Shown: positions 1,616 to 44,054 of the stretch, piece by piece | Layout: every line of letters starts with the position of its first letter | How positions within the stretch are numbered: position 1 is the first letter of the stretch | Origin: Candidatus Bathyarchaeota archaeon | GTDB lineage: Archaea; Thermoproteota; Bathyarchaeia; Bathyarchaeales; DTEX01 | Assembly (NCBI GenBank): GCA_963714275.1 | Contig: CAVQNT010000002.1 | Coordinates: forward strand, 942,576 to 1,006,575 | DNA length: 64,000 bases | Direction: 5' to 3' | The notes under the pieces: model-generated | Told to the model about the DNA's origin: nothing | The model's database searches: none | Seen by the model: the letters and a program-made list of their open reading frames with translations, nothing else | Program-made: the position numbers and the translations under genes

Positions 1616-1640
1616 ATTAAAATTTAATCCCAAACCCAAA
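1616..1640 (-). repeat. Dispersed G-tract/palindrome site, reverse-orientation copy
   Basis: ATTAAAATTTAATCCCAAACCCAAA is the reverse complement of TTTGGGTTTGGGATTAAATTTTAAT. Confidence 0.8.
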
Positions 1641-1671
1641 AAATAACTAACTAACGCGCGTTCTGTTTATT

Positions 1672-2553
1672 TCATGGGGGAGTCACGGTTACACTGAATG
1701 TCCAGATACCAATAGAATTTCTAAACCAATAAGCATCAACGTTGACAACACCAAGTTCAAAAACAAAATATCCATCTTTTGGAATTGTAAACCTCGGCGG
1801 ATCATCCAAGCTGATTTGTTCACATGCGATATCACCTAGTTCGCTACCATTATTCAAAAATACGTAATTGTATCTCAGATACCATCCTTCTGTTACATCA
1901 GAAGGATAATCAAGAAGTCTCAAAACAACAACATCTCCCTTTCTCAATTGGATACTTTGATTGAGGCTGTCAATTATGTGCATAGCGCTCCCTCGTATGT
2001 ACCACTCATTTTGAAATTTGGCAAGCGCGTTTGCTTCAATTGGGGGATTGTATTCAATTTCTATTTTGAAGGTCTGTTTCAGTTTACCAAGTTTCTGAAA
2101 GTGGTCAAGAATCCTCGAATCGTTTCTAGGGTCTACGCCCTTAAAAAAATCTGAGGAAGGATACCCTTTTTCCAGCTTTATTGTACTGTCAGTTGTATTG
2201 ACAAAAGTTTCTATAACTATTCCATGATATGAAACAGATGAAATTGGAGTCCAAAAGGATCCATTATAAATCTCTTGGTTGCCTATTTTCAAAACAAAAG
2301 GCTCCCCATGGATTACACTTTCCACTTTCAATGCTTGTATTTTCTTGACTCCTTCTTCAGTGAGTTTGATTTCGTGACTGCTTTTGTTATACCACACGAT
2401 TTCGTCATCGGATATTACTAGTTCATTGTTCTTCAGAAGGTAAATCCCAAATCCCTCACTCGAGAATCTGAGTTGATTAGTTAGGTAGAATCCTCCAGCG
2501 ACTACAAGAACTGCAACTATTAGAATGACCAATGAGATTTTGATTGTTTCCAT
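1672..2553 (-). CDS. Membrane-anchored or secreted hypothetical protein
   Basis: 293 aa ORF with N-terminal hydrophobic anchor (ISLVILIVAVLVVAGGFYL); GGAG-type RBS upstream on the minus strand. Confidence 0.75.
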   Translation of the reverse strand: METIKISLVILIVAVLVVAGGFYLTNQLRFSSEGFGIYLLKNNELVISDDEIVWYNKSSHEIKLTEEGVKKIQALKVESVIHGEPFVLKIGNQEIYNGSFWTPISSVSYHGIVIETFVNTTDSTIKLEKGYPSSDFFKGVDPRNDSRILDHFQKLGKLKQTFKIEIEYNPPIEANALAKFQNEWYIRGSAMHIIDSLNQSIQLRKGDVVVLRLLDYPSDVTEGWYLRYNYVFLNNGSELGDIACEQISLDDPPRFTIPKDGYFVFELGVVNVDAYWFRNSIGIWTFSVTVTPP

Positions 2554-2837
2554 AATAGAGCTGCTCCTAAACCTTCTCTTATCTGTTTGGATTTAATTAT
2601 TAAATTCAAGATAAAGGTGAAGTAGTAGAGTTGATTTTCAAGTTATAATTGCGATAGAATATGTCCTGCTGGCGCCATCAAACACCAGTCTAAGAAAAAA
2701 AACTCGAAATAATCAGAAATCTGCGAAAGAAATAGCAGAATGCGCGTTTGATTGACTGTTCGACCATTTGAGTGATTGATTGAGATTGATAGATAGAGAT
2801 TGATAGAGAAAGAGAGAGAGTATATATAAGTGAGAAA

Positions 2838-2861
2838 GGTTGGGTTGGGATTAAAATTATC
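2838..2861 (+). repeat. Dispersed G-tract/palindrome site (degenerate)
   Basis: GGTTGGGTTGGGATTAAAATTATC preceded by GA-rich simple sequence. Confidence 0.65.
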
Positions 2862-2924
2862 TTCGAATATAGTTTTATACAGTTTGTAGATTCCAATAGA
2901 TAAAGGAGAAATCAGCTATCAGAA

Positions 2925-3596
2925 GTGGTTCAGATGAACATTGACGTTTTTCGGGATAAACTTAGCTCTCAATTAGGAGAAAACCTCAAATGTTTAGTTC
3001 ATATGGGTAGTCGTGTTAGAGGAGAGGCAAGGGTTGACAGCGACTACGACTTCGCATTGATCGTTCACAACATAAACAGAAAAGTCTTGGATGAAATTAG
3101 AAATGTCTTCTCAGATTACCAAAATGTTTCAGTCTATATTCTCGAAGAACAGGAATTAAGGCGTCTCCCAAAAGCCTTGTGCGCCACAAATTTGCAGTTT
3201 ATCTACTCTAGGGTGGTCTATGGTGAATGCTATTTCCCAAAGCCGAGTACGGAGGACATCGACACCTACATTGGCATCATGAGGAGCGACGAGATTTTCG
3301 CTATTCGACATTATCTTACTCTCTCTCACGATTTGAGTAGATTAGTTGAAATAATTGGAATGCGACTAAAGATGGTGTACTTCTGTCTAACATATCTCAT
3401 CTACAAGGAGACAGGCGTTCTCTCAAGAACAAGACTCGAGGCGATGGACTACCTTAAGAAGAAAAGCTCCCAGAGACTCGGGGTTGCTCTTCTTGAGATT
3501 TTGGAGAATTGGCAATCTATAGAAACTTCGGCAGCTGAGAGAGTACGCGAGTATCTTCACATGTTGGAGGAGTTCTGGCGTACCCTTGAAGCATAG
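2925..3596 (+). CDS. Nucleotidyltransferase (Pol-beta/MNT superfamily) with C-terminal helical domain
   Basis: GSRVRGEARVDSDYD matches the GS-x(10)-DxD NTase motif. Confidence 0.8.
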   Translation: MVQMNIDVFRDKLSSQLGENLKCLVHMGSRVRGEARVDSDYDFALIVHNINRKVLDEIRNVFSDYQNVSVYILEEQELRRLPKALCATNLQFIYSRVVYGECYFPKPSTEDIDTYIGIMRSDEIFAIRHYLTLSHDLSRLVEIIGMRLKMVYFCLTYLIYKETGVLSRTRLEAMDYLKKKSSQRLGVALLEILENWQSIETSAAERVREYLHMLEEFWRTLEA

Positions 3597-3706: not shown

Positions 3707-3731
3707 TTTGGGTTTGGGATTAAAATTTAAT
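3707..3731 (+). repeat. Dispersed G-tract/palindrome site (consensus copy)
   Basis: TTTGGGTTTGGGATTAAAATTTAAT followed by CTTTTT. Confidence 0.85.
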
Positions 3732-3848
3732 CTTTTTCTCTCTCTCTCTCTTATTTTATTTCTTATCCACGTTACAATGTATCCCATGTATCGTGTGTAT
3801 CGTATATCACACAAAAAAACTAGAAAAAAATACGAGGGAAGCCTAGGG

Positions 3849-4584: not shown

Positions 4585-4800
4585 TCATTGTTCAGGCTTC
4601 CGAATGAACCTTCCCGACTTTTTGTCTCTGTATCTTATCTGAAATTTACCGTGAACCGTAACCCGTTCAATCCGCCACGTCTGAGCTTCTTGCTCAGCAA
4701 ACTTCAAACGAGCCTGACGTTCAGTGTATACGCATAAGAACTTTTTCGGGAACAGGAATGCCGATTTTTTCAGCCTTACTTTCAAAGCCAAATTTTCCAT
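4585..4800 (-). CDS. Small basic hypothetical protein
   Basis: 71 aa ATG ORF ending RDKKSGRFIRKP. Confidence 0.45.
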   Translation of the reverse strand: MENLALKVRLKKSAFLFPKKFLCVYTERQARLKFAEQEAQTWRIERVTVHGKFQIRYRDKKSGRFIRKPEQ

Positions 4801-8686: not shown

Positions 8687-9020
8687 TAGCCTGTATCCTT
8701 CCTAAAACCATAAGGACAAATTGCACTTATTAGTATATTTCGCGCGAGCTATATTGCGTGTTTCTCGGGTGTGTGGATACATTGGTGCGTCTGAAGGGGT
8801 CAAGCCCTATTATGGCGAGACAACCTTTACCGGAGACTATCTTTATGAGAATCGGTTCTATATTACCCAAGGTTAGATGATTAGTACTAAATTCTAGGCT
8901 TCCAAGCTTCTCGTTCATCTCTTTGGAAATTCGCAAAAAGTAAAGCCTCTTTTTTCTTAAAACTTTAGAAAAGTCTTATAAATGCTCGGAAAATAGTTAG
9001 AGTAAATATATTTTTAGCTA

Positions 9021-18168: not shown

Positions 18169-19414
18169 CTAGGTAACATTTTTTGTGTGTCTTCCAGTCT
18201 TTTCTGTTTTAATCCATCTTCTTGGCAGTCTAAGGATCATCTGCAGAAAAGCTGTGGCTGTTAGGATGCTTTGCAGGTTCCAGTAAGCGTAAATAAATGG
18301 CAGCCAGATAACGTTTTTTATTTTCACTGGCTTCGTAACGTATATTAAGGCTACGCCTAAGGTCAGAATAGTGGCAATTGCAGAAACCAATGTACCCTCT
18401 GCCATTACATTAAGTATTGGGTCGTGAATGGGGAACAAGGAGAGGTATAGCGACATTATGTAGCTTAGGAAGAAGAAGGATAGCACGTATGGTCCCATCA
18501 TTGTAACTTCGGCGTCGAATGTTTTTCTCTCTAACCTTTTTAAGAATCGTCCGTACTTTACAGCTACTTCCATGTAGCCTCGGTACCATCTTAGCCGTTG
18601 CTTAATCAGTTGAGAAAGATTTGAGGTTGCTTCTTGCCATGAGATAAGTTCAGGAGCTAATTTTATGCCGTAACCTTTCTCCGTAATTCTTAGTGACATC
18701 TCCAAGTCCTCAGCCAAGCAGTTTTCGTTCCATAATCCAACCTCTTCAATGACTTCTCTACGGATAAATTGGCAACTTCCAGCTTAGGGATACAAAAAGG
18801 TTGAGGGCGTCCTTTCCCTGTAAAAAGGTTTTAAGCCAAACTACCTCCTCATAGGATACTATCTTGGTCAACATGTTCTCATCAGCATTTATTGTACAGG
18901 TGGTTCCCTGAACTGCTGCAATAGACGGATCTGTAAAGTATTCGGCTGCGTTTAGTAAGGTGTCAGGTTCAGGAACATTGTCTGCGTCGAAAACGGCGAC
19001 AATCTCTCCTTTTGCCTGTTTGAATCCGAAGTTTATGGCTGAAGGTTTTCCTGTTGAAACGTCACGGTGAAAGTACTTTATGGTCTCGGGGCAGCGTGTA
19101 GCATAATCTTTACATATTTCTGGCGTTCTGTCGGATGAGCCGTCTTCAACTAATACTATTTCCTTTTTTTCAGGTGGGTAGTTAAGCCGTATGAGGGCGT
19201 TCAATAGCCTTTCAGCAACTTTTTCTTCGTCCTTAAGAGGTACAACAATACTCATTGCGGGAAGATTGACGCTTGGCATTGCCTTGTTTTTTCTGTTTTT
19301 TGAATTCGATTGATGGAAGTGCCTTATTCCCATGGCTAGGATGGGGATGTTGTAGGCTGCCCAGACGTATATTAGAATCGTTAGAATGTAAGCAATCGCT
19401 AATATTAGGTTCAT
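18169..19414 (-). CDS. Processive GT2 glycosyltransferase (cellulose-synthase-like), frameshifted ~18780
   Basis: EDGSSD, GKPSAIN, FDAD, (L)AEDLE and KQRLRW (QxxRW); TM helices at both ends. Confidence 0.9.
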
Positions 19415-19730: not shown

Positions 19731-19902
19731 TTCAATTTTTTATTGGATAGTTCGTGCGTATTGGTATAATCTTGTATTCTTAATATTTGGTGTTTCGTCA
19801 CTGGCTTTGGGAATAATCGTTACGTTGTATGAAAGAAAAAAAGGCCTATTCCTTCGTTTGCGTCGACTAATAGTGAGTTATGAATTATGTATGCTAGAAG
19901 TG

Positions 19903-21939: not shown

Positions 21940-22120
21940 TTACCTTACCACTAATATAAAGAAAGGGGGTATTTTTCCTATTATTACTTGTGAAAAAAGT
22001 AATTGAGTGTTCTAGAAATTAATGCGTGTTTGAATGTGTTGTTGTGTGATATACGGGATATACGTGATACGGAGTAAGGTAGAGAGAGATAGAATAAGAA
22101 TAAAAGTGTGTGTGGTGACT

Positions 22121-22650
22121 AAATTTTAATCTTTTTCTTCTTATTTGTTCTCATGCGTTCGTGTATGTTTGTGCTTAGTGTATAGGTGAAGGTGTAAGTG
22201 TGTTTCACTAGCTCTATTTGCGAAGTTCGTAGCTTGTGATCTTGACAAATCTAATTCATTCGTTTTTGTTTCCTTCCCAACTACATAACCTAAACCCAAA
22301 AAGCCTAGAATCGTTCGCATTATAGTGTAAAAGTAAGCGTTCCACCAGCCCATCTTGAAAAACGGGGAAAACTCCCAGTAACTTACGCTATAGTACCAAC
22401 TGTTAAATCTGGGAGCTACAATCATCCAGTCTAAGTCAACAAGTCCAGAAGTTAACAAAACGACGGAGCCGAGAAGCAATAACACGGTTTTATCATTCAA
22501 TGTTTTTCCCTCAACGTTTCTTCTAGACTTAGACTATGATTTTCATTCAGACTTCAATTCTCCAAAAAAAATTAAGGAAGCCAATAATAAATGTATGAGA
22601 ATGAAAATTATGAATTTTACCTTCCTCTAATAACCAAACCAAAATCAAAA
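22121..22650 (+). repeat. ~530-bp direct repeat, copy 1 (copy 2 at 34511-35044)
   Basis: Near-identical sequence starting at the AAATTTTAATCTTTTTC palindrome site. Confidence 0.95.
22141..22500 (-). CDS. Small membrane protein (duplicated)
   Basis: Paralog of 34604..34906 with two hydrophobic segments. Confidence 0.6.
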   Translation of the reverse strand: MNDKTVLLLLGSVVLLTSGLVDLDWMIVAPRFNSWYYSVSYWEFSPFFKMGWWNAYFYTIMRTILGFLGLGYVVGKETKTNELDLSRSQATNFANRASETHLHLHLYTKHKHTRTHENK

Positions 22651-24194: not shown

Positions 24195-24220
24195 GTGTGT
24201 ATGGAGATTAAATTTTAATC
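24195..24220 (+). repeat. Dispersed palindrome site
   Basis: GTGTGTATGGAGATTAAATTTTAATC. Confidence 0.65.
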
Positions 24221-24292
24221 CTTGTTATTAGCCAAGTATTTGAGAGACGGAAAAGAACCGTGGATGCCAAGGATTGCAGTTACATCAGGTAT

Positions 24293-26256: not shown

Positions 26257-26272
26257 TGTATTGTAAATAGAG

Positions 26273-26464
26273 TCAGCGAGCTCTCATGCAACGATGTAAA
26301 TGTTGTGTCTTGATTTCTCGTTCACATCTTTCCATTTCACGATATTTTCCGCAGTAGCCTACCTCGCCAAGGTTACGGCATGTGAACGTACTCGGCTGAT
26401 AATATTTGCATTTATATGAGTATTTACATGCGAAGAAATTCTTTAGAATCGTGGTAATCTGCAC
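26273..26464 (-). CDS. Small Cys-rich protein (duplicated at 37908..38075)
   Basis: CKYSYKCKYY..TC..YCGKYR retained in both copies. Confidence 0.5.
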   Translation of the reverse strand: MQITTILKNFFACKYSYKCKYYQPSTFTCRNLGEVGYCGKYREMERCEREIKTQHLHRCMRAR

Positions 26465-26676
26465 ATAGGGTCACTCGAGTATTATAATGCCTAGTATCTT
26501 TCTGCAGAGAGAACTAATGATTTGTGAAACGCACATTCAGAGTTCAGTTTAGAAGGACTGACTCATAGGAAAAGAAAAAGTGAAAAAACAAGAATGAAAG
26601 AACGAGAAAACGGATAAAAGGTTTGGGTTAAGGGATTGAAATTTATTAGATGACTGCTAGAAGATATCTGGAAGAC
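26278..26676 (+). repeat. ~400-bp direct repeat, copy 1 (copy 2 at 37888-38289); contains a G-tract/palindrome site at ~26621-26647
   Basis: Near-identical sequence in both places. Confidence 0.95.
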
Positions 26677-26736
26677 TTAATATTATATAGTCTTTTATCA
26701 ACCGATTTTACGGACAATTATCTTTGCCCACTAATG

Positions 26737-26982: not shown

Positions 26983-27066
26983 AATGAGAAAATAAAAATA
27001 CCCCTAAAAGATTCACCTAGCATTGTGATGATACATCGTCAAAGTTTGTCAAAGAGTGTGAAATAG

Positions 27067-27279: not shown

Positions 27280-27318
27280 AGGATGAGGTAGTGTTCTCCC
27301 GAACCTAAAGCCTTTGAG

Positions 27319-28011
27319 GTGAGATGTTTGATAAATGAATCTACTCTTCAATATATTTCGTCAAGGTGGACGGATTCTGAAGGACAGATGATTTCAACAT
27401 GTTCAGTTTATGATCCAGTTCAAATTGAAATACAAGTTGAGAATCCAATGCGAAAAAAAACAATTTCAAGCCTAGTAGAGGTGGAGATCTACAGAGATAC
27501 TGTCACCTTACTTGCCGAGAAGGTAATGAAAGAATTCTTCGCGTTGGCACTTTCTCCGCTTTCAACTGAAAAAACGCTTGTCAATTTCACACCTTCGCAG
27601 GAATCAAGATATCACTACAAGATTCGAATCGAAAAAAAGGAAATCTACTGCCAACCGAAAAGTAATCCTCCAAGGCTATATGCTTCTAAGAAAGAAAGTA
27701 CTCTCACTTTAGACGAACCCTTAAGTATCGTTCAGGCAAATTCAACTATACATTTCACTGGAAAAATGGTCAGCACTAATGAAGGAGAAAGCATAGATGG
27801 AGCCAGAATCCATATTTTTGACGTAAGACGTACGAGGAGGGATAACCTTATGGCTTCTGGGACTACTAGAAGCGATGGGACTTTCAACATAGAATGTATA
27901 GTCAAAAGAATGGGTTGGTGGCGCAACACCATTGATATCTATTCAAAGTTTGATGGAGACGACGTATATAAGCCATCGGTAGGCAATCGATACACTATTA
28001 GGTTGACATAA
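27319..28011 (+). CDS. Hypothetical protein with Ig-like domains
   Basis: GKMV..GESIDGARI..TRSDGTF..FDGDDVYKPS Ig-like signature. Confidence 0.7.
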   Translation: MRCLINESTLQYISSRWTDSEGQMISTCSVYDPVQIEIQVENPMRKKTISSLVEVEIYRDTVTLLAEKVMKEFFALALSPLSTEKTLVNFTPSQESRYHYKIRIEKKEIYCQPKSNPPRLYASKKESTLTLDEPLSIVQANSTIHFTGKMVSTNEGESIDGARIHIFDVRRTRRDNLMASGTTRSDGTFNIECIVKRMGWWRNTIDIYSKFDGDDVYKPSVGNRYTIRLT

Positions 28012-28241
28012 AACTCGAATAGTCAGCTAAGTAACGGCAATGTACTTTTAACATCTAGCTGGTTAACGATGAGTCCAGAAAAAGAATTTAGGTATAGCTC
28101 TTGGATTTGGTGGTTTGCCTGTTACTACCACAGAAACAAGCTTAGACATACATGTTTTCGTCTAGAGTTTTTTGTGCGATATATGTCTGTCTGTCCGTCT
28201 CTCCGTCTGACTGATCGTCACGGAAGGTAGAGAGAGCGTGT

Positions 28242-28268
28242 GTTTGGGTTTGGGGATATAAATTTAAT
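28242..28268 (+). repeat. Dispersed G-tract/palindrome site
   Basis: GTTTGGGTTTGGGGATATAAATTTAAT. Confidence 0.75.
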
Positions 28269-28375
28269 TACTTAGATGCTGTTAATACGAGATGAATATT
28301 CAGAATACTTTTTTTACCATTGGAATCTGAAAAAGTAGAATTCTTAACGGTTCAATTAGCTGTTTTCAATTTACT

Positions 28376-29575
28376 TTACATTGCTGTTGATGGTGCCAAT
28401 TTGTTGCCGCACTTGTTACAGTATGTTGAGTCGCCCGCGTTTTCTGTTCCGCAGTTTGAACAAATCAACATCGTGTTGTTAGGTGTAATCTTCCTTGTCG
28501 TGTTCACGTTGTCCAGAGAGAATGGAGGTGCCCACTGGAAGCCTTTTTTGTACGAGTAAATGTAGGGTATGGCGAGGTCTACGTTTTTGCTTGCTTGTAT
28601 TGCTTTGTAGACCTTTTTCGAAATTTCGTGTATTACTATAGGTCTGTCCGTGGCTAAGGTCATAAACCTGAGCCTCATAAAGACGCCGTACCAGTCAGTC
28701 ATATCCGCTCGGATGTATGGCTCTTGGCCCGTTTTTTTGATAACATCTGCAGTCACTTCTTTTGCTGCGTCGAGGAGAATTTTTTCTGCTTCATCCCAGT
28801 CTGAGTCGAAGCTCAGCCGCAATACGAACTCGTCAAGCATGAAGGCGGATTGAGGCGACCCAGCCATTGCTTTACGTTTGTTCGACAGCTCAATGAGTTC
28901 GCCCTGATCCTTCGGAGTGTAATTTATTACAAGCGCACTGAACAGCATGGCGTTTGGGATCAAAATGGTTCTGTTCGCAGGCTCCTCGCTTCCTACGCTT
29001 CCTCCTACCTGATTCAATATCGTGTACAAGGGCGTAATGTGGACGACATCGCCCACAAGCGCATAAGAGGGAAGCTGGACCCTGTCTCCGACGCTGAACG
29101 GTCTGATTACAGAAACGAGAAACCAAGCTGCGAGACCGCTTATGGGTCCCTGTAGAGACCATCCTAGGAACATTCCGCCGAAGGATGCGAAGATAACTCC
29201 AAGAGTTCCTAACGAAAACCAACTTGACAATAACGTGAGTATTCCAACCGTTATTATGATGAACTTGTAGACTCCCTGAAGCATGCCGACCTCGCCTTCT
29301 TTTCCTCCCATTTTCAGCATCAGCGACTTGAGGAAAAACGAGCCTATTCTGTAAAGAACTATAAGGCTGGCAATGACAAGGACCAAAACAATGAGTTGAT
29401 TCGTGTATTCGAAGGGAGCAACAAGCGATTCTCCGCCGAGCTTAAAGTACCAGAAAAGAAAAATGCCTGTGATGACAATTGTTAAAGGCAGAACCAATTG
29501 CTCTTTTTTCATTTCGAGCACGACTCCGAGTGATAAAACTATTAAAAGAAGCAACCATTCATTTAAGTGTTCCAT
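28376..29575 (-). CDS. MscS-family mechanosensitive channel with C-terminal zinc ribbon
   Basis: GWSLQGPISGL..RPFSVGDRV..GDV..IPNAML..INY; C-terminal CSNCG..YCNKCG. Confidence 0.88.
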   Translation of the reverse strand: MEHLNEWLLLLIVLSLGVVLEMKKEQLVLPLTIVITGIFLFWYFKLGGESLVAPFEYTNQLIVLVLVIASLIVLYRIGSFFLKSLMLKMGGKEGEVGMLQGVYKFIIITVGILTLLSSWFSLGTLGVIFASFGGMFLGWSLQGPISGLAAWFLVSVIRPFSVGDRVQLPSYALVGDVVHITPLYTILNQVGGSVGSEEPANRTILIPNAMLFSALVINYTPKDQGELIELSNKRKAMAGSPQSAFMLDEFVLRLSFDSDWDEAEKILLDAAKEVTADVIKKTGQEPYIRADMTDWYGVFMRLRFMTLATDRPIVIHEISKKVYKAIQASKNVDLAIPYIYSYKKGFQWAPPFSLDNVNTTRKITPNNTMLICSNCGTENAGDSTYCNKCGNKLAPSTAM

Positions 29576-29874: not shown

Positions 29875-30279
29875 TTAAATGGTTTCTGGCTTTATTCGTG
29901 TTAGTCCGGGGACTCTGTCATAGGCTTGGTCGAATGAGATGATCTTTCGGTCCAGGTTCAGTGAGGCTGCTGCATAGTGTGAATCGAAGAATGTTAGGTT
30001 CAGGGTTTGTCTCAGATAAACGCTTGCAACAGCTGTGTCGGGTTTCAGTGCGACGTATTCTACGTTGGGCAGGGCTGCTATTGCGGCTAGGTCTCTCAAC
30101 AGTTTATTTTCCATTTTTTCGGCTCGGTAAATCAGCTCCATTTCAATTAGGCTGACGCTTGAAACTTCTACCGTGATTTCTCCATTCTTAAGTTTTTGGA
30201 AGATTGTTTCAGCGGTTTCGTGGTTGGGGTCATACTCGTTTAAGTAGGCGAAGATGACGTCGTTTTCTAAGAGGGGCAT
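29875..30279 (-). CDS. vapC: PIN-domain toxin (VapC family)
   Basis: LLENDVIFAY, IEME, TFFDSHYAA, SFDQAYD. Confidence 0.88.
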   Translation of the reverse strand: MPLLENDVIFAYLNEYDPNHETAETIFQKLKNGEITVEVSSVSLIEMELIYRAEKMENKLLRDLAAIAALPNVEYVALKPDTAVASVYLRQTLNLTFFDSHYAAASLNLDRKIISFDQAYDRVPGLTRIKPETI

Positions 30280-30527
30280 CTGTTTCTACTCCGTTCTTTC
30301 TTTGCCTCGTCTTCAGCGATTAATTCTGCCTCTTTTCTCAGATTTTTGAATGGTTTTTTGATGTTGAATGCGCCGTGTAGGATTCGTAGCGGATCGGATG
30401 GCAGCGGGATTATCTTAATGTGGTCTCCAGCATTCACTATTAGCACTTTTTTCTTGATGTCTAGAGACTCCCGGATTTCCTTTGGCAGTGTGAGTCTTCC
30501 TTTGCTGTCCATATTTAAAATGCTCAA
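30267..30527 (-). CDS. AbrB-family antitoxin
   Basis: MDSKGRLTLPKEIRE; overlaps the PIN gene. Confidence 0.9.
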   Translation of the reverse strand: MSILNMDSKGRLTLPKEIRESLDIKKKVLIVNAGDHIKIIPLPSDPLRILHGAFNIKKPFKNLRKEAELIAEDEAKKERSRNRCPS

Positions 30528-30575
30528 ATTTCCACCTGAGCGGAAATTTAGCGTTAGGTGGGATTTAAACTTTAT
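30527..30575 (-). promoter_or_regulatory. TA operon promoter with inverted-repeat operator
   Basis: AAATTTCCACCT..AGGTGGGATTT imperfect inverted repeat next to minus-strand AAAGTTTAAAT (BRE/TATA-like). Confidence 0.5.
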
Positions 30576-30793
30576 TGCCTTTAAAGTGGGACATTATTCA
30601 GATTGCGCGTGATGTTTCAGTTATCTGGCATTTTAGAATTTGCCTCTGAGCCTTCTTTATTAGGAAGGCTTTATTCATTAACAGGAAATTGGTTTCGGCG
30701 GATTTTTAATGTTCATGCGTTTTTTCTGTTTAAAGCCATTTTATGGTTTTTGTTAAGCCTTCTTTCAAGTTCACCTTGGGCATCCATAGCTGA

Positions 30794-31027
30794 CTAAAGC
30801 GCTTTATCAAGTTTTGAGGAGTTTGTCTTCACTCCGGTGTTGTCGGGTTCTATGTTAAACAAGGGGTCCTCATCAATAGCGATTTGTGTACTGATCCAGT
30901 GCTGAACGGCTTCCCGTACGCCTTCCTTTATAGTCAGCTTCCTCTTCTTCGCAGCCTTCACGAGGAACTCGTATTCTTTCTCATCGAGCTCGGTCTGGAC
31001 CGCTTTTCCATTAGCCAAATCATTCAC
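30794..31027 (-). CDS. Ribbon-helix-helix/CopG-like orphan antitoxin, probably 3'-truncated
   Basis: VQTELDEKEY..AKKRKLTIKEGVREAV..DPLF..SSKLDKAL; stop falls in a TAGCTGACTAA motif and no toxin follows. Confidence 0.65.
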   Translation of the reverse strand: MNDLANGKAVQTELDEKEYEFLVKAAKKRKLTIKEGVREAVQHWISTQIAIDEDPLFNIEPDNTGVKTNSSKLDKAL

Positions 31028-31116
31028 CGTTTAAATGAGAAAATCACATTTTTATTAAACATTTTTGTTTTTCAACGGCTGAAACCATTGTTTCCATACG
31101 GCTGTTGCTCAAGCGC

Positions 31117-31341
31117 TCATCGGTTTTCAGGACATTTAACATTTTGGTTTTGGAGTTTCTCGGCATCCTCGTCTTCCAAGTAGAGTTCCAGTGCTTCTTC
31201 GAGGTTTCTTAAGGCTTCCTCCATGCTTTTGCCTTGGTTAGCTGCATCTAGCTTTGGGCATGATGCTACGTAGATGTTTCCTTCTTTCCAGACGACAGCT
31301 GAGAATCCTAAGGTTTTGGCGACTTCCATGAGCGTCTTCAC
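31117..31341 (-). CDS. hicB: HicB-like antitoxin (orphan)
   Basis: VVWKEGNIYVASCPKL..QGKSMEEALRNLEEALELYLE. Confidence 0.82.
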   Translation of the reverse strand: MKTLMEVAKTLGFSAVVWKEGNIYVASCPKLDAANQGKSMEEALRNLEEALELYLEDEDAEKLQNQNVKCPENR

Positions 31342-31461
31342 CTATAACCATACGAGAGTAAAGGCCTTGAGATAAGCATCTCTTTCCTATTTGTCTTGTT
31401 TGTTCTTTTTGAGGTTCTGGTAAGAGAGGTTGAAGGCTTCCCAGCAGCTTTCGGGGTTTCT

Positions 31462-31875
31462 CTACTCCCGTATCTTCTGCATCTGGATGTCTAGTTCCTT
31501 GAATTCCTTGTCGCTACCTGTTATCAGCTTGGCTTTTAGGATCTTTGCTGTTGCGGCTGCGTACGCGTCTGCGAGCGAGAGTGTGTGGGCGCTCTTGATT
31601 TTGGCGGCTTCACGCCACAATTTGTCGTCTCTTACCGGTACAACCTTTAGGCCGTAGAGGCGGAGGTTCCTAACTTTTTCTTCGGCGAGTTTGGGGTCTA
31701 CTCTGTGCAGAATGTAGTAGATTTCGGTTAGGTTGATTATGTTTATGTATCCTTCGGCTTTTCCGTTTTGTATTTTTTCGAGGCTGTCTCTTACGAGTTC
31801 CCCGCCTTCTTCGCCGAGGTAAAAGGCTAGAATAGCTTCAGAGTCAAACACCAGCTGCTCTGACACGTTTCTCAA
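31462..31875 (-). CDS. vapC: PIN-domain toxin (VapC family)
   Basis: VFDSEAILAFY, NLTEIYY, SLADAYAAATA, TGSDKEF. Confidence 0.9.
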   Translation of the reverse strand: MRNVSEQLVFDSEAILAFYLGEEGGELVRDSLEKIQNGKAEGYINIINLTEIYYILHRVDPKLAEEKVRNLRLYGLKVVPVRDDKLWREAAKIKSAHTLSLADAYAAATAKILKAKLITGSDKEFKELDIQMQKIRE

Positions 31876-32129
31876 TCTTCCTGTCTTTCGTCTGTTCTTC
31901 TTTTCTGGCCTCTTCCAGTAATTCTTTTGAGCTTTTGTCTCTGAAGAGGGTTTTTAGTGAGGCTGAAGTCTTGGCTGGGCGTGGGAACGGGTTTCAGAAC
32001 AATCTTTCCTTCTTCCTCTTCTATGAGCACCTTGTCTTTTATGCCGTATTTTCCTCTCAGTTCTTTGGGTATGGTTGCTTGCCCCTTCTTCGTGACGCTG
32101 ACAACTGTAACCAATCTAGACACCGTCAT
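31872..32129 (-). CDS. AbrB-family antitoxin (probable frameshift near C-terminus)
   Basis: VTKKGQATIPKELRGKYGI. Confidence 0.88.
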   Translation of the reverse strand: MTVSRLVTVVSVTKKGQATIPKELRGKYGIKDKVLIEEEEGKIVLKPVPTPSQDFSLTKNPLQRQKLKRITGRGQKRRTDERQED

Positions 32130-32385
32130 TACTTAGTAGGAAAGTAATACTTAAGTCTTTTATCCTTACCAGCTGGTTCAGTATTAAGCGAAGCATGAAT
32201 ATTCATGAATACGTTTTCGGACTTCCATGTTTCGGGCATTTCCTTTGTTCGCGGTTCCTGTAACGTGAGCTTCTTTTGGTTCATAGTACCATCTCTGTTT
32301 TTAGATTTGCTATCCGGTTTGCGTTTTTCGAAGTCCTGCATTCTGAAGAGAAGTAGTAGTCTCCATAATATTTAGGTCAGTTAGC

Positions 32386-32562
32386 TTAGCTTTTGGAAAG
32401 TAAGCCTCGTCCTATCTGTTCGCCTTTGTGGACTGGAACAACTGTTACTCGCCCATCAGCGTGTTTCAATATCACGTGACTGCCTCGTTGTCTCACAGGC
32501 TTAAAGCCGATCTTTTCAAGTACTTTTATGATCTTCCTAGCTGGAAGCGGTCTTAAGCTCAC
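32386..32562 (-). pseudogene. hicA: HicA toxin, C-terminally truncated (absent from the ORF track)
   Basis: Hand translation from GTG: SLRPLPARKIIKVLEKIGFKPVRQRGSHVILKHADGRVTVVPVHKGEQIGRGLLSKS*; stop lies within TTAGCTTAGCT. Confidence 0.82.
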
Positions 32563-32782
32563 TGGTTGGAACCTCTATGAACTGGATGCCTATGAGTTCT
32601 TTCTTCTCTTCAATTGCGGAGCCTTCAACCTCTAGGTAAAGCGACACCGCCTCGTTAATCCTCTTCATTAGTTCGTCTATTGTTTTAGCTTGGGTGTGGC
32701 AGCCTGCGAGCTCAGGAACAGACGCAACGTAATAGCTGTCCTCGTCCTTCTCAATAATGACGCTGAACTTCAAGAAAACCAC
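32537..32782 (-). CDS. hicB: HicB antitoxin
   Basis: IIEKDEDSYYVASVPELAGCHTQAKTIDEL..EAVSLYLE; overlaps hicA. Confidence 0.9.
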   Translation of the reverse strand: MVFLKFSVIIEKDEDSYYVASVPELAGCHTQAKTIDELMKRINEAVSLYLEVEGSAIEEKKELIGIQFIEVPTSELKTASS

Positions 32783-32986
32783 TGTCTTACTGGTATTCCG
32801 TGGCTCTTATATTCTTTTTCTCAGACATTGTTATCCCGCGTGCTTTTTATAATATCTTTAATGTCTGGAATAACCGCACGATAGAGTGAAGCTCTCGCTT
32901 TTCCGTGTTTTTCGTTTTGTCCGTCCTTTGTTTTAGAGGTCGGCGCGAAGCCTTAAGATATATGGGTTGTTTGGGACTTAATTAAC

Positions 32987-33147
32987 GCCCAGAGAATTCT
33001 CAGGTTGGCTTTAAGGGTGCCTCCGGTTCTGGGATTCTTATATTTGGGTACCATCCTATGTCTTGGCTCCACCATATTAAGTAGACATCTTTGAACCCGT
33101 TTTGTTGGGCTACTTCAACAGCTTTCGTTAGGTTCATAGCGTAATAG
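32987..33147. pseudogene. Chimeric remnant: GT2 3' fragment joined to the 115-bp repeat
   Basis: 32987-33039 resembles 44278-44330 and 33033-33147 matches 17755-17869; the two overlap at GATTCTT. Confidence 0.75.
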
Positions 33148-34488: not shown

Positions 34489-34525
34489 TTTGGGTTTGGG
34501 ATTGGGATAAAAATTTAATCTTTTT
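34489..34525 (+). repeat. Dispersed G-tract/palindrome site at the left edge of the 530-bp repeat
   Basis: TTTGGGTTTGGGATTGGGATAAAAATTTAATCTTTTT. Confidence 0.8.
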
Positions 34526-35044
34526 CTTCTTCTTTGTTCTCATGCGTCCGTGTATGTTTGTGCTTAGTGTATAGGTGAAGATGTAAGTGTGTTTCACTAG
34601 CCTCTACCTGCGAAGCTTCGTAGCTTGTGATCTTGACAAATCTAATTCATTCGTTTTTGTTTCCTTCCCAACTACATAACCTAAACCTAAAACGCCAAGA
34701 ATCGTTCGCATTATAGTGTAAAAGTAAGCGTCCCACCAGCCCATCTTGAAAAACGGGGAAAACTCCCAGTAACTTACGCTATAGTACCAACCGTTAAATC
34801 TGGGAGCTACAATCATCCAGTCTAAGTCAACAAGTCCAGAAGCTAACAAAACGACGGAGCCGAGAAGCAATAACACGGTTTTATCATTCATTGTTTTTTT
34901 CCTCAACGTTTCTTCTAGACTTAGACTATGGTTTTCATTCAGACTTCAATTCTCCAAAAAAAATTAAGGCAGCCAATAATAAATGTGTGAGAAAGAAAAT
35001 TAAGAATTCAACCTTCTTATCATATAACCAAACTAAAATAAAAA
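34511..35044 (+). repeat. ~530-bp direct repeat, copy 2
   Basis: Matches 22121-22650. Confidence 0.95.
34604..34906 (-). CDS. Small membrane protein (duplicate)
   Basis: Paralog of 22141..22500. Confidence 0.6.
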   Translation of the reverse strand: MRKKTMNDKTVLLLLGSVVLLASGLVDLDWMIVAPRFNGWYYSVSYWEFSPFFKMGWWDAYFYTIMRTILGVLGLGYVVGKETKTNELDLSRSQATKLRR

Positions 35045-35168: not shown

Positions 35169-37295
35169 CTAGTTTATCACTTCTACCACTTCTTTTATTC
35201 TTATGCATAATGTTCCGTCCATCCTATAAAGGTCGGCAGCTGCCTTGAACCTTGAGTTCTTCTTTATCAATGCTTTAGGTCCGTTGTATTCTTCAGGTGT
35301 AAGCCGAGCCCTCCATTTGTCGTTCACTATGACCACTGCTATGTTTGGATATATCTTTTCAACGGCTACCTCGTACATTTTTTCGCCGACCGCCTTTACA
35401 GCTGATGCGACGGCATAGCGATCTTGTCCTATCTCCGTAACAAGGCCTTCTCTAACCATCTTTCCAACTGTTGCTTTCAGAACTTGAGGCGAACTCCTTC
35501 ATACTCCATGTCTGAAGCTATTTGACCTATATCTGCGCCGGAACCTCCTCTTTCCAAAAGTTTCATATACAGTATTCGTGAGGTACATTCAACCTTCCTG
35601 TTAAACTCTCTTAATAATTTCAGCTTCAGGTTTCACTGCTTCAGGTTCAGCCTTAACCTGCCTAGCTTCCTCCTCCAGCGTTCTTATCTCCATCTGTGTC
35701 AGCGGGTTTGAAGTCGGCTTAGAATGTTTTCTGACAAGAGGCTGAAGCTTCAGGTTCATGTTCTCAGCTATAGTCTTCATCTTCTCAGTTCTTCTTCTGC
35801 TGGCGTAGAGGTAGATCATGTCGAGGCTTTCGTTCGCCGCTAAGATTGTGACTTTGCCAGGGGCTTTTCTCCCTGTTCTGCCGCGTCGCTGGATATATCT
35901 TATTTCGCTTGGTATAGGCTCATAAAATATGACGTGGTCCACTGCTGGAATGTCCAAGCCTTCCTCAGCGATTGAGGTTGCCACTAAAACATTCAGTTCG
36001 CCTTCTTCAAGCATTCTTATCCTTTCAGCCTGCTCTTCCTGAGTCAAACCTTTATCCATCAGTCTTTGAGGCTTGACCGACAAACCTATCAGCCTTCACG
36101 CCTGGAACCGCGTTTAGCTCTTCAACCAGATGGCTTGCTGTATCCCTATACTGTGTGAAGACAAGCATCCTTGATGACGGCTTTTTCTCAATTTGTTCCT
36201 TCACTATTTGTTTCAGAAGTTCAGCCTTCGGATGTTCCGTGGAGCTGTTTTTAACAGAGGTCTCTAATTTCCCATATTCCGAGTCACTTACAAGTATGGC
36301 ATAGCTGCGCTTCTCCCGTTTCTCCAGTTCAACCTTTTTTAGGAAAGCTCTCAGCGTATGGAGTCCTTGAGTCTCCAATAATTCAAGCATATGAAACAAT
36401 GTTAAGGCCAGTGACTGGTTTATTATGGCTGTGAAAATGTTGCCTCTTTCCTCCTCTATGCTTTCTTCAAGCATGAACCTGAGTTCATTTCCAGCCTCAA
36501 TCAGGCTTCTTCTGGTAACGTATTCTAGTCTGCGTTTGATTATGCCCCTGCCAATCAGCCAGTTCACCCTTCTATCCAGCATAGTCCTGATTTGAAACCT
36601 ATATCCAAGTATTCTTTTGGCAGGTTTACTCGTTTCCATTCAACCTCTATCGGCTGGATGTAAGGCTTGACATCTGAGTCTTCTTCGCTTCTGTACTCAA
36701 CCCCTTCAATGTACAGGTTTCTGCAGACCGCTAACACTCTGTCTAGGTCTGAGCCTGGAGAAGCCGTCATACCCAATATAAGCGGATAACGGGCTTGAGA
36801 AACGTAGAGCTGAGCAATGTCAGTGTACGCATATTCTTTCACGGCTTTGTGACACTCGTCAAAGACAACTAAGCCATAGTTTTCGAGCGATAACCTATGT
36901 TCATGGAGGTCGTTTCTTACCACTTGAGGCGTAGAGAAAACTATTCTAGCCTCGCCTTCCCAAACTAGATGTCTATAATCTGGAGACGTCTCCCCCGTTA
37001 AGAGCACCGTATCCTTTTCCCGAAGCTTGAGCAGCCTTAAGAAACTGTTCCTATGCTGCAAAACCAAAGGCCGCGTAGGCGCCATAACCAAGACCTTAAA
37101 GTCCTTGTAGTTGTAAAGCACATTTGCTGCTACAATTACTGAGATAACAGTTTTGCCTAACGCGGTTGGCAGGATAACCAGCGTGTTTCTTTCTGAGGCT
37201 ACATCCGCTATATGTTTCTGGTAGAGCCTGAACTCTACAGTCTCAGGCCAGATCAAGGGATGCTCGAAGTATTTTGGGCCGTATGCTTCCAGCAT
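35169..37295 (-). CDS. Hef/FANCM-like SF2 DEAH helicase with no recognisable ERCC4 nuclease; split by frameshifts
   Basis: RLYQ, PTALGKT, PTRPLV, DECH, GMTASPG, VFTQYRDT, FVGQA, ATSIAEEGLDIP and QRRGRTGR across four ORFs. Confidence 0.9.
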
Positions 37296-37627: not shown

Positions 37628-37887
37628 AACGTAACACCAAAATCATTATCAACTTGTAGAGAGTTAAAACTTTCCGTAATACTACCACTTCATTTTCCTT
37701 ATTTAACAGCAACCAGATAAGCTCGCGCGCGCCAAACTTACTTTCCTTCTTTTTTCAGACTAGCTAGTACCAGCTTTCAAAAAGTACAGTATATTTCCAC
37801 GGTGGTTTTTTTGGACTAAGTGGATGACTGATGAAGAGCATGAGTTGTTTAGGTCTTTTTGGAAGAACATCAAGAAACTTAAACAGT

Positions 37888-38289
37888 GAGCTTGTCATGC
37901 AACGATGTTAATATTGTGTCTTGATTTCTCGTTCACATCTTTCCATTTCACGATATTTTCCGCAGTAGCCTACCTCGCCAAGATTACGGCATGTGAACAC
38001 ACTCGGCTGATAATATTTGCATTTATATGAGTATTTACAGGCGAAGAAATTCTTTAGAATCGTGGCAATCTGCACATAGGGTCACTCGAGTATTATAATG
38101 CCTAGTATCTTTCTGCAGAGAGAACTAATGATTTGTGAAATACACATTCAGAGTTCAGTTTAGAAGGACTGACTCATAAGAAAAGAAAAAGTGAAAAAAC
38201 AAGAATGAAAGAACGAAAAAAAACGGATAAAAGGTTTGGGTTAAGGAATTGAAATTTATTAGATGACTGCTAGAAGATATCTGGAAGAC
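37888..38289 (+). repeat. ~400-bp direct repeat, copy 2 (includes Cys-rich ORF 37908..38075, minus strand)
   Basis: Matches 26278-26676. Confidence 0.95.
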
Positions 38290-38543
38290 AATAAATAATT
38301 ATAAAGCAATATTTTATTAGAAAAAATCTATATAATTTTACGTTTTCTTCACTTTATTCCGAATATGATGAAAGTGCACTATTTAGCCAGTATACAGCGG
38401 TTAAAATGGTATATTCTTCAATTTTGAATGGTAGCCCGGATTACGTGACTTATCTCGTTTAAATTTCTCAAAACTGGGAAATTCTTTCAGGTTAAACAGA
38501 TTGTCTTTTTTGTTGGTTTCCTATACAGTCTCTCGACATATGT

Positions 38544-40543: not shown

Positions 40544-40745
40544 CTCTTTTGTCTATCAACGTAGATAAAGTCGCGTCTTCAGCGCTCCAAGAGTGACGAT
40601 ACCGATGAGAAGAAGTCTCATTTATCTTTTTATTTTTTTGAGGTCTCCATCTTTGGTTTTTAGGAATTCTAGCGCTTGCGTCTTTTTATTAAAGAACAGT
40701 ACAAAACGATGGTGATATCTTCCCAACTAGCAGAAGAGAGAGAAA

Positions 40746-40780
40746 GATTAAAATTTAATTCCTTCCTTCCTTCCTTCCTT
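40746..40780 (+). repeat. Palindrome core GATTAAAATTTAAT followed by a (TTCC)n microsatellite
   Basis: Read directly from the sequence. Confidence 0.7.
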
Positions 40781-42062: not shown

Positions 42063-42707
42063 AAGATAAGATAACGTCTGCTTACTTAATCAAAATATTC
42101 GAAAAAATAGCTAATGATGTTACAGAATCTAAAGATTTCATCCGTGAACTTGATGCAGCCGTAGGAGATGGCGATCTCGGGGTAACCACATCCGACTGGA
42201 TTAAAGAGTTTAAGAAACGGTCTTGTTGAACTTTCAGACAGTGATATAGGAACCATCCTGATTAAATGCGGTATAAACTATAACAAGTCTGGGGCATCTA
42301 CCTTTGGAACGCTATTAGCCATAGCATTAATGAAAGCAGGAAACGAGGTAAAGGGTAAAAATGATGTTGATCTACTCGACCTTGTAAAAATGGCTAATGC
42401 AGCTGTTCAAGAAATCAAAGATCGTGGAAAGGCGCAAATAGGCGACAAGACGATACTCGACGTTTTAGTGCCCGCTACTGAAGCGTTGCAAAGTGCATAT
42501 AACCACAAAAAGAATATGGCAGAGGCTTTGGATGAAGCTTTAAATGCTGGTGAAGAAGGCTTAAAGTCAACCATACAAATGAGGTCGAAGGTTGGTCGTT
42601 CCAGCTGGCTGGGAGAAAAAACAATAGGAAAACAAGATCCAGGCGCTACTGTAATTTATCTAATGCTTAAATCATTCACCGAATTTGTGAAATCACTAGC
42701 TGACTAG
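42047..42707 (+). CDS. dhaL: Dihydroxyacetone kinase subunit L family, frameshifted ~42195
   Basis: LDAAVGDGDLG; RGKAQIGDKTILD; GRSSWLGE..DPGA. Confidence 0.88.
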
Positions 42708-42900
42708 AAAAGCAATAGTGGTTTATGATTCTAAATTCGGTAATACCGAGAAGATCGCAAAAGCACTTAGTTGGGGAATGAGAAAGAATGGTTTCTCGGT
42801 CGACTGCGTTAAAATAGATACTGTTGACCCAACAAAACTCGCAGACTACGATCTGCTGGCTATAGGGGCTCCCACACAAGCTTTAGGTATATCTGGACCG
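42708..42900 (+). pseudogene. Flavodoxin N-terminal remnant
   Basis: KAIVVYDSKFGNTEKIAKAL..YDLLAIGAPT; the original start appears lost at CTAG and similarity stops at the CGCGCGCGC run. Confidence 0.85.
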
Positions 42901-42972
42901 CGCGCGCTGTCTCTTCTTTTTTGGGGTTTCTTGATTATTGCTTCTTTCAGGCTATTGAATTCTTTTTACCTC

Positions 42973-43967
42973 TTATTTGAAGACTTTGACAACCTTGTCG
43001 TAGTATGTTTCCACTTCTTCGTCTGTTCCTTTTCTAGGATAGGTGAGAAAGGTGGTCACGCCTATATCGATGCGCTTCTGTATCTGATCGATGATTTCGT
43101 CAGTAGTGCCAATTAGGTTCCAATCAACATACTCTTGCGTCAAAGGCATTAGGCCTCGAGTGAATTTCAGACCCGGAGTCCTCTCAACTATGTCGACCAG
43201 CTCCTCTTTGCGACGATAAATTATTAACTCAGAACTCCACTGTTTCTTTATCTCATCATAGTTTCTACCCACTACCTCACAATGCTTCTTCAAAACATTC
43301 AACTTATGCTTATACGATTCCACACTTCCAAAAAAGTTCCATTCGTCAGCCTCCCGAGCGACTACCCTGAGGGTCAGTGCTCTCCTCCGCCGCCAATCAT
43401 TATTGGTGGTCGGGGTTTCTGAACGGGTTTAGGCTCACAAATCGGATTGTCAATTTGGAAGTATTTTCCCTTCCATTTTGGACTCTTCTCAGTCCACATC
43501 ATCTTGCATATTTTCACGGCTTCCCTCAACTGTGCGATTCTAATCGCTGGCTTGGGGAATAGCATACCATAGCCTCTATACTCTTGTTCGGCCCATCCTG
43601 CTCCGATGCCCAATATGACTCTTCCATGTGAAATAAAGTCTATGTTAGCCACCATTCTCGCTAGGACGGCGGGATTGCGGTAGCCGACGGCGACGACCGT
43701 CTCTCCCAGTTGGGCTCTCTTCGTTACGGCTGCGATGGCTGCTTTGGTTGTCCCCCATTCAAGCATTGCTCCTCCTTCCCAGGATAGGTGGTCGCAGCCA
43801 TAAATGGCATCGTAGCCCAGTTCATCACATTTTATGGCCATGCTTGCGACTTTATCCCAGTTGACTTCCGATTTTGTCTGACCTGCCACATCTCTATACC
43901 AGTGACATCGATCGAGGATAATTCCAAATTTTATTTTAGCCAATTTAGTCACCACATCGAATGTCAA
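42973..43967 (-). CDS. LLM-class (luciferase-like) flavin/F420-dependent oxidoreductase, frameshifted ~43375
   Basis: GYDAIYGCDH, RNPAVLARM..DFISHGRVILGIGAGW..EY, PKPVQKPRPPIMIGGGG. Confidence 0.9.
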
Positions 43968-44019
43968 CTTTTAAAATAAAAGATTTTATGGTTGAATTGA
44001 TTCGCGCGTGCTTTGAATT

Positions 44020-44054
44020 GGTTTGGGATTTGGGTTTGGGGATTAAAAATTAAT
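44020..44054 (+). repeat. Dispersed G-tract/palindrome site
   Basis: GGTTTGGGATTTGGGTTTGGGGATTAAAAATTAAT. Confidence 0.8.

Follow-up and report, generated by a model that had tools for sequence, protein, structure and literature searches.

Casposons, transposons that encode a Cas1 homologue, have been proposed as the ancestors of the CRISPR adaptation machinery; few families are known, inserting at one or a few gene ends. Their terminal inverted repeats measure 25-602 nt, their target-site duplications have a median length of 15 nt and, by definition, all of them carry a family B DNA polymerase (PolB) (PMC4046053); tandem insertions are described as well (PMC6563490), and the casposase of Candidatus Nitrosopumilus koreensis is reported to duplicate a 13-bp target next to a 3-bp leader (PMC8464041). 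Here we examine a motif, made up of a short AT palindrome and G-rich or C-rich arms, that recurs in a 64-kb stretch of DNA (hereafter the window), which is the final 64 kb of contig C2 of a Bathyarchaeia genome (assembly of 2.64 Mb in 10 contigs, ~43% G+C). The motif is probably the footprint of small Bathyarchaeia transposons that carry a stand-alone Cas1, resemble casposons and lack PolB. It is best read as a duplicated target site together with the tips of terminal repeats, since direct 13-mers lie outside inverted repeats that enclose a Cas1 gene, with no Cas2, CRISPR array or PolB inside.

The core of the motif is the 13-bp palindrome ATTAAAWTTTAAT, of which the genome contains 40 exact and 55 one-mismatch copies; 91 of these 95 sites are intergenic according to our own, crude gene calls, on which the intergenic and gene-context counts given here are based. 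For the 15-mer GATTAAAWTTTAATC (at most one mismatch), six matches were found in the window, as compared with a mean of 0.03 and a maximum of 1 in 100 dinucleotide-preserving shuffles. When the 132 half-sites of the 66 well-flanked sites were aligned, reading 5' to 3' into the core, C accounted for no more than 8% at positions -18 to -2, and the low C content of the flank extended to -60. The motif is therefore symmetric, consisting of a G-rich arm, an AT palindrome and a C-rich arm. The arms are of several kinds, namely (TTTGGG)n/(CCCAAA)n, (GT)n/(CA)n, GAGAGAAAAAG/CTTTTTCTCTC and (TCCT)n, and a core follows within 7 nt after 31 of the 34 TTTGGG-type arrays in the genome, compared with 2 of 71 control G-runs with short spacers. 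The sites are clumped, with clusters on C2 (345-391 kb and 916-987 kb, the latter taking in the window), C3 (62-115 kb), C4 (99-146 kb) and C5 (168-186 kb) as well as along C7.

Three complete elements with a Cas1 gene are bounded by the motif in this genome. E1 (C4:99115-105172, 6.06 kb) has a perfect inverted repeat of ~140 bp (100% identity) and encodes a Cas1 of 344 aa (PF01867, E 3.2e-41); E2 (C7:143210-147638, 4.43 kb) has an inverted repeat of ~60-75 bp and an intact Cas1; and E3 (C2:931102-937519, 6.4 kb), which ends ~5 kb before the window, has an inverted repeat of ~125 bp and a frameshifted Cas1. In all three, the inverted repeat begins at the core (exactly at the core in E1), and the core reads the same way on the plus strand at both ends. 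At the two end sites of E1 the inward flanks are identical and the outward flanks different, and the outer flanks are themselves repeated arms present at 4-6 other places, which fits insertion beside older ends. The arrangement recurs in other Bathyarchaeia. That is, 57 loci with this Cas1 (L numbers below) were fetched from metagenome-assembled genomes (MAGs), 26 of them were scanned, and nine of the 16 that had 3 kb or more of flank to either side showed inverted repeats of 32-154 bp around Cas1, the outer ends of which abut a core-like 13-mer. The bounded elements, 12 in all with the three found here, are 3.6-7.7 kb long, and in 11 of the 12 the 13-mer is direct. This orientation is unambiguous in six of them, in which the asymmetry of the 13-mer goes beyond the central base (ACTAAATTTTAAT in two elements, ATTTAATTTTTAT and ACTAAACTTTCGC in one each, and A(T/C)AAAACTTTAC in two); in E3, for instance, both copies of the core are ACTAAATTTTAAT, and ATAAAACTTTAC is likewise among the non-palindromic 13-mers of these six. 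By gene content as well as by their tips the elements fall into two groups, the A-type (E1, E3 and seven MAG elements), which begin CTTT(C/T)TCTCTC, and the B-type (E2, L016 and L020), which begin CCCAAACCCAAA. Just outside the duplicated core, a G-run on the left and a C-run on the right are found in the A-type elements E1, E3, L028, L030, L031, L034 and L036. Three companion genes are conserved in the elements, encoding a ~170-aa protein, a 110-150-aa protein and a small AbrB-like protein.

The Cas1 protein scores 160.7 bits against TIGR00287 (cut-off 71.7), and its nearest homologues come from Bathyarchaeia. All 13 sequences in the alignment share residues E162, H227, D239 and E242, which coincide with the Cas1 motifs of the PDB structure 4n06. 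Each of the genome's seven Cas1 Pfam matches is either enclosed by motif sites or adjacent to one, and of 25 Cas1 loci detected by tblastn, 17 are within 3.5 kb of a site, a distance that covers 18.8% of the genome (binomial P ~1e-7). The family is represented by 2239 homologues at E≤0.001 and is present in 19 of 41 related genomes; in a check for a viral origin, a relative of this Cas1 was found in 2 of 2.9 million viral contigs. Most of the Cas1 fragments (about 20 of 25) comprise only the last 25-45 codons, ending near residue 342 (e.g. C1:90050, C2:327961, C2:483593, C4:95919, C5:87756, and 24168-24284 and 8890-8964 in the window), and in some MAG elements the C-terminal part is a separate open reading frame (ORF) of ~82-86 aa (L021:6189-6437, L034:8816-9076). 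The 3' end of the gene could either be what deletion derivatives retain or represent an independent small gene.

The genome, which is 91% complete, has no match to Cas2 (PF09827), and a crude genome-wide scan of repeat spacing revealed no CRISPR-like array, nor was a tandem array seen near E2. Matches to PolB (PF00136) occur at C7:153900, C2:470903 and C3:240001, all outside E1-E3; PF03175 gave no match in the genome, though its positive controls were equally silent. Pfam scans of the element proteins revealed no polymerase domain, and none of the 12 bounded elements contains PolB. Elements of the IS200/IS605 type were rejected, as the genome gave no match to TnpB or to a Y1 transposase, and so were tRNA genes and known RNA families, none of which is present at the sites.

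What is directly observed is the architecture, the fact that it goes with Cas1 and reappears in other MAGs, and the conservation of the catalytic residues; from this we infer mobility, enzyme activity, target recognition and the course of events. As a casposase, the Cas1 homologue would hold the two 3' ends of the element, i.e. the tips of the terminal inverted repeats (...GAGAAAG-3' in the A-type, ...TTTGGGTTTGGG-3' in the B-type), and would attack the two strands of the AT-rich palindrome A(T/C)TAAAWTTTAAT 13 bp apart, after which gap repair would leave one 13-mer at each end as the target-site duplication. Most targets would have a G-run on the 5' side and a C-run on the 3' side, an arrangement that may be likened to the short leader needed by known casposases; the preferred target looks like GGG-core-CCC, given the G-run and C-run outside the core of most A-type elements. 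Each insertion would yield a second target, and the B-type tips (CCC...) would recreate GGG-core-CCC, so that new insertions could land beside old ones. Decay by deletion would eventually leave solo ends, consisting of the core and 12-150 nt of G-poor arm. On this reading, a CT-rich tract after the core would be an A-type tip and a purine-rich tract before it an A-type end on the other strand, whereas a TTTGGG tract would be either a B-type tip or the leader-like flank of a target. The canonical site, TTTGGGTTTGGG-core-CTTTTTCTC, then reads as the right end of a B-type element and the left end of an A-type element sharing one core.

The initial annotation of the window, made from the sequence alone, had considered either a site for site-specific recombination or integration, or the conserved end or origin shared by integrative elements of one family. 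The direct 13-mer at both ends and the conserved inverted-repeat tips flanking the core agree with an integration site and with a conserved element end. Site-specific recombination is not upheld, because the elements carry a Cas1 homologue and no tyrosine or serine recombinase, which rather suggests transposition with a staggered cut of 13 bp. The initial annotation had also held that the motif does not resemble attC, a CRISPR repeat or a dif site, and indeed the spacing is not regular as in CRISPR arrays and no Rfam family matches.

A tyrosine recombinase could nevertheless be imagined to act at the motif, as the crossover site of integron- or shufflon-like cassettes or as the attachment (att) site used by integrating plasmids or viruses. 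The genome has 14 or more Phage_integrase matches above the Pfam cut-off, the borders of duplicated units coincide with sites, and three paralogous loci (C2:300-308 kb, C6:364-370 kb and C10:14-22 kb) each combine two sites with an integrase at a distance of a few kb. Yet these three loci are all that came of the co-location with integrases that the initial annotation had proposed as a check: neither the window nor E1-E3 has a PF00589 match, and for most site clusters (those along C7 and at C4:99-146 kb, C3:62-115 kb and C2:916-987 kb) the nearest integrase is more than 5 kb away. Furthermore, att sites are direct repeats without terminal inverted repeats, whereas here inverted repeats of 32-154 bp abut the 13-mer, and the long imperfect palindrome typical of attC is missing, the pairing core being 13 bp of A and T only. 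We therefore regard a recombinase site as extremely improbable. As to the three paralogous loci themselves, they perhaps represent a different integrated element that was hit by, or carries, the same target.

Palindromes of this shape, 13 bp of A and T with an odd centre, are also bound by dimeric regulators, and the small AbrB-like protein of the elements does have an AbrB/MazE fold (PF04014, E 1.3e-7 and 1.6e-5). The motif might accordingly be the site of a dimeric DNA-binding protein, e.g. of the Lrp/FFRP or AbrB type or a chromatin protein, that marks accessory islands. We give this very little credence, since it would explain neither the inverted repeats nor the direct duplication nor the link to Cas1, and since 13-15 bp of exact sequence with G-tracts in fixed phase (at 31 of 34 arrays) exceed the conservation usual for regulator sites. 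In addition to the role of the motif as target and terminal-repeat tip, the AbrB protein of the elements could, however, bind their ends.

A third explanation would be that the motif is chiefly a transcription signal, that is, a symmetric promoter with TFB-recognition element (BRE) and TATA box, perhaps bidirectional, or a promoter/terminator module, which the Cas1 elements merely carry or prefer. The sequence GAGAAAAAG-ATTAAAAT resembles the regions upstream of tRNA genes (AAAAG followed by TTTAAAT or CTTAAAT; 29 tRNAs, compared by eye), 91 of the 95 sites are intergenic, GA-rich sequence like that of a BRE surrounds the site at 40747, which is located between divergent genes, and the T-runs that follow the core (TTTTAATCTTTTTCTT) would be suitable for termination in archaea. 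Against this, the gene contexts of the sites appear random (26 ++, 24 --, 22 convergent and 19 divergent), and convergent gaps, which make up 410 of the 2582 intergenic gaps, are not depleted at sites. By a hand count, ~17 of the sites with a GA arm fit the orientation of the downstream gene and ~13 contradict it, and the distance between site and gene is mostly 100-900 nt. The strict 15-mer is present in just 3 of 41 related genomes, unlike what would be expected of a general promoter, and direct 13-mers outside inverted repeats would be left unexplained. An ordinary promoter or terminator was rejected as the principal explanation because the sites appear to be placed without regard to the direction and arrangement of the genes, and we consider this reading improbable. 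As a side property, the motif might still act as the minus-strand BRE/TATA promoter that the initial annotation had named as an alternative.

Several observations weigh against the interpretation as Cas1 transposons. The best PDB match of the Cas1 protein is the CRISPR Cas1 4n06 (E 4.4e-24), ahead of the Methanosarcina mazei casposase 6opm (E 3.8e-11), and for 8 of the 25 Cas1 fragments the nearest site is over 3.5 kb away. By our own criteria, 7 of the 16 related loci with enough flank had no inverted repeat, and in L016 the centre base of the 13-mer is inverted instead of direct, the inverted repeats running through the core into GTGTGTGTGC, an exception that could be due to gene conversion between the arms. 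Only three of the ~95 sites in this genome bound a Cas1-carrying element; the ends in the window are not clearly paired, and most sites are read as solo or decayed ends by analogy. Target and terminal repeat are hard to tell apart, since the arms are heterogeneous (TTTGGG, GT, GA/CT, TCCT) and the CCCAAA tract is inside the element in E2 but outside it in E1 and E3. A search for empty sites yielded no orthologous DNA matching the E1 flanks in the six other species of the genus. In the related genome G002, homology to C2:134124-136182 stops ~80 nt from a site, and the present genome has no site at that place; as evidence from an orthologous position, this is suggestive only. In support of the transposon reading, metagenome contigs from four runs switch partner at sites in the window (26648, 28240, 34493, 34535, 38261 and 44029), which is only a hint of mobility, all the more so as the sides of these junctions are short (21-45 nt) and at repeated sequence and may be assembly artefacts.

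Window sites were screened for a core with 0-3 mismatches to ATTAAANTTTAAT and either a left flank rich in G and poor in C or a right flank rich in C and poor in G (Table 1). Eleven of the 13 sites listed in the initial annotation passed; those at 2585 and 32964 are only weak variants. At 40746 the arm is GA-rich, and the G-tract that the initial annotation had assigned to the left arm is missing. Its claim of a nearly uniform orientation was confirmed, the G-arm being on the left in 10 of the 11 sites that have one, as was the intergenic position of the window sites by the crude calls, the core at 24207 abutting a Cas1 pseudogene remnant. The sites are 0.9-18 kb apart, and the first 25-35 nt of the termini of complete elements match those at 1616, 3707, 22106, 34489, 40746 and 44020 at 89-100%. 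No intact Cas1 is present in the 64 kb, which contain worn ends and gene remnants instead. The sites at 1616 and 2838-2862 enclose a single gene (1672-2553) between inward-facing CCCAA tips, and the segment from 1616 to 2862 may be a mini-element; the variant at 2585 may be the promoter of this gene itself.

Table 1. Motif sites, element remnants and duplicated units in the window (positions in the window; core, 13-mer passing the screen)
Feature	Positions	Strand	Core	Description
Gene remnant	1211..1504	-		Resembles the 147-aa protein of E2 (33% identity over 106 aa, tblastn E 1.4e-6); 112 nt from the 1616 core
Site	1616..1640	-	1616-1628	Core ATTAAAATTTAAT, then tip CCCAAACCCAAA: left end, B-type (CCCAAA) terminal repeat; 26 nt match the E2 terminus at 96%
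Weak variant	2585..2607	+		GTTTGGATTTAATTATTAAATTC; failed the core screen; ~32 nt upstream of the start of gene 1672-2553
Site	2838..2862	+	2850-2862	Arm GGTTGGGTTGGG and half-decayed core ATTAAAATTATCT, 3 mismatches
Site	3707..3751	+	3719-3731	TTTGGGTTTGGG (B-type right tip), exact core, CTTTTTCTCTCTC (A-type left tip); left tip matches L016 and L020, right tip E1, L021, L028, L030 and L036, at 91-97%
Element-gene remnant	4591..4689	-		Conserved 110-150-aa protein; 70% identical to its E3 counterpart over 33 aa, E 5.6e-11
Cas1 C-terminus remnant	8890..8964	-		Residues ~317-340; in an intergenic gap
Site and 530-bp unit	22106..22650	+	22118-22130	GT-rich arm, core ACTAAATTTTAAT, A-type tip CTTTTTCTTCTT opening the unit; 25 nt identical to the E3 terminus
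Site and Cas1 tail	24195..24284	+	24207-24219	GT-rich arm, exact core, then the last ~23 Cas1 codons (LLLAKYLRDGKEPWMPRIAVT); Cas1 C-terminal remnant 24168-24284 abuts the core; matching core-plus-Cas1-tail junction in a congener, L003:2288-2363
400-bp unit	26274..26687	+	26635-26647	Ends in GTTTGGGTTAAGGG and decayed core ATTGAAATTTATT; worn B-type right end
Site	28242..28268	+	28256-28268	GTTTGGGTTTGGGG and core ATATAAATTTAAT; between two converging genes
Extra candidate	30563-30575			G-run and core-like 13-mer, GGTGGG-ATTTAAACTTTAT; absent from the initial annotation's site list
Weak decayed variant	32964..32990	+		GGGTTGTTTGGGACTTAATTAACG; failed the core screen; contig junctions at 32968
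Site	34489..34538	+	34507-34519	TTTGGGTTTGGGATTGGG, core ATAAAAATTTAAT, A-type tip; L020 tip on the left, E3 tip on the right
Site	38233..38260	+	38248-38260	Copy of the 26621 site within the 400-bp duplication
Site	40725..40775	.	40747-40759	AGAGAGAGAAAG (A-type right tip), exact core, (TCCT)n arm; divergent gap; E1 and L028 tips match 25/25; G-tract absent
Site	44020..44054	+	44042-44054	GGTTTGGGATTTGGGTTTGGGG (B-type tip) and core ATTAAAAATTAAT; E2 and L020 tips match at 91%

Elsewhere in the genome, an exact core at C6:491605 lies 135 nt beyond the 3' end of a 16S rRNA gene (C6:491752-493254, minus strand), after a T8 run; its arm and the outer left flank of E1 belong to one family. Short runs with stops in all three frames (TAACTAACTAAC, CTAGCTAGCTAG and GCTGAGCTAAG) are frequent in the site arms, e.g. 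at 1641-1660 in the window, and genome-wide.

Two duplications in the window are bordered by sites, in the way the initial annotation had described. Positions 22121-22650 equal 34510-35044 at 94.4% identity, the match beginning inside the core while the left flanks differ, and a third copy of this 530-bp unit is found at C2:86800-87328; positions 26274-26687 equal 37884-38303 at 95%, the match ending 40 bp past the core. On its minus strand (22141-22500 and 34604-34906) the 530-bp unit contains an ORF for a possible small membrane protein, with a core of ~85 aa conserved between the copies and a C-terminal end altered by frame-changing indels. At a larger scale, window positions 19881-28998 are repeated in inverted orientation at C2:80457-89565 (9.1 kb, 98% identity), ~880 kb away on the same contig; this segmental duplication includes four motif sites, and its own ends are not at sites. 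Numerous genes appear split or truncated across the window, at 18169-19414, 35601-37295, 42330-42707, 43374-43967 and 44981-45340. Among the broken genes are a family 2 glycosyltransferase in two ORFs, a Dak2 fragment and the C-terminus of a GHMP kinase standing alone; a luciferase-like monooxygenase covers about half of its profile, and three neighbouring ORFs resemble, as judged by eye, a split Hef-type helicase. Given the many broken genes and the 9.1-kb inverted duplication, the window is a rearranged, decaying accessory region. Between motif sites, at 29875-32782, lies a cluster of the toxin-antitoxin type, with two PIN-domain proteins and a HicB-like antitoxin.

Nine of the 12 elements encode the ~170-aa companion protein (L005:6616-7149, corresponding to C4:102616-103149, and relatives), for which neither Pfam nor NCBIfam gave a match. 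Its structural model (pLDDT 76.8) gave as best Foldseek match the archaeo-eukaryotic primases (AEP), at a weak E of 4.8e-3, and VIA Z scores of 4.8-5.9 to AEP primases, under the noise bound of 8. The alignment includes a DxD/E-like motif, as judged by eye, and 54% of the members of its atlas cluster have PF24387. In light of this motif, the weak fold matches and the atlas cluster, the protein may be an AEP-like primase-polymerase. One could go further and picture a distinct PolB-less branch of Cas1 transposons that replicate by means of this miniature primase-polymerase-like protein, home to a palindromic 13-mer with a leader-like G-tract beside it and, as the 13-mer is duplicated at every insertion and B-type ends restore the complete target, build up clusters of the repeat-insert-repeat kind. 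Such clusters, with ~11 sites in the window, most of them in one orientation, would be a living analogue of the proposed step from casposon to CRISPR array, and the core with a GA-rich end would act as an outward BRE/TATA promoter, so that insertions could rewire the transcription of neighbouring genes. We regard this extended scenario as doubtful.

A full-text literature search, which did not extend to the supplementary tables of casposon papers, where a similar palindromic target may be listed, returned no description of casposons in Bathyarchaeia or of PolB-less casposons, and the single paper that contains both 'casposon' and 'Bathyarchaeota' uses the two words in separate contexts. It appears that a family of Cas1 transposons, seemingly without PolB and targeting a short palindrome with a leader-like flank, is abundant in Bathyarchaeia and has left ~95 copies of its target, along with 25 remnants of Cas1, in one genome. 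This would provide a natural system in which to study the choice of palindromic targets by Cas1, the build-up of repeat clusters through target duplication, and the reshaping of accessory regions in an uncultured, globally common sediment archaeon. For annotation, the motif may serve as a marker of element borders and rearrangement points in these genomes.

Among other known systems, remnants of miniature inverted-repeat transposable elements (MITEs) or solo ends are similar in that many copies of termini occur without a transposase gene, in intergenic positions and at rearrangement borders; they differ in that the window yielded no short, uniform element whose two ends match and most sites have two different arm types around one core. 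CRISPR arrays have repeats of 23-47 bp spaced 50-100 bp apart, in contrast to the spacing of the window sites. The adaptation proteins Cas1-Cas2 insert spacers of 30-40 bp, whereas the inserts here are several kb long with inverted repeats, and Cas2, a regular array and effector genes are absent here. Shared with them would be staggered cuts by a Cas1-family enzyme that border a short, often palindromic, leader-adjacent sequence, which is duplicated with each insertion.

The family 1 casposase of N. koreensis (PMC8464041) is close in its features. Both systems have a 13-bp duplicated target, a short adjoining leader (3 bp there, a G-run in most elements here) and a Cas1 without a long C-terminal helix-turn-helix extension (344 aa here). 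In N. koreensis, however, the leader is TTT as against GGG in our elements, the target is part of the ef-2 gene and is not reported to be palindromic, and the elements carry a protein-primed PolB. From casposons in general, the elements described here differ in lacking PolB within any of the 12 bounded elements, in their companion genes (~170 aa, 110-150 aa and small AbrB-like) and in their target, a dispersed intergenic palindrome present in dozens of copies instead of the 3' end of tRNA-Pro or the elongation factor 2 (EF-2) gene. With the exception of the internal PolB, they nonetheless show the casposon features of a Cas1 with catalytic residues that stands alone, without CRISPR array or Cas2, of inverted repeats (32-154 bp, as against 25-602 nt) and of a direct target duplication (13-15 bp, as against a median of 15 nt; PMC4046053), and they share with casposons the reuse of the same target, which leads to neighbouring insertions (PMC6563490).

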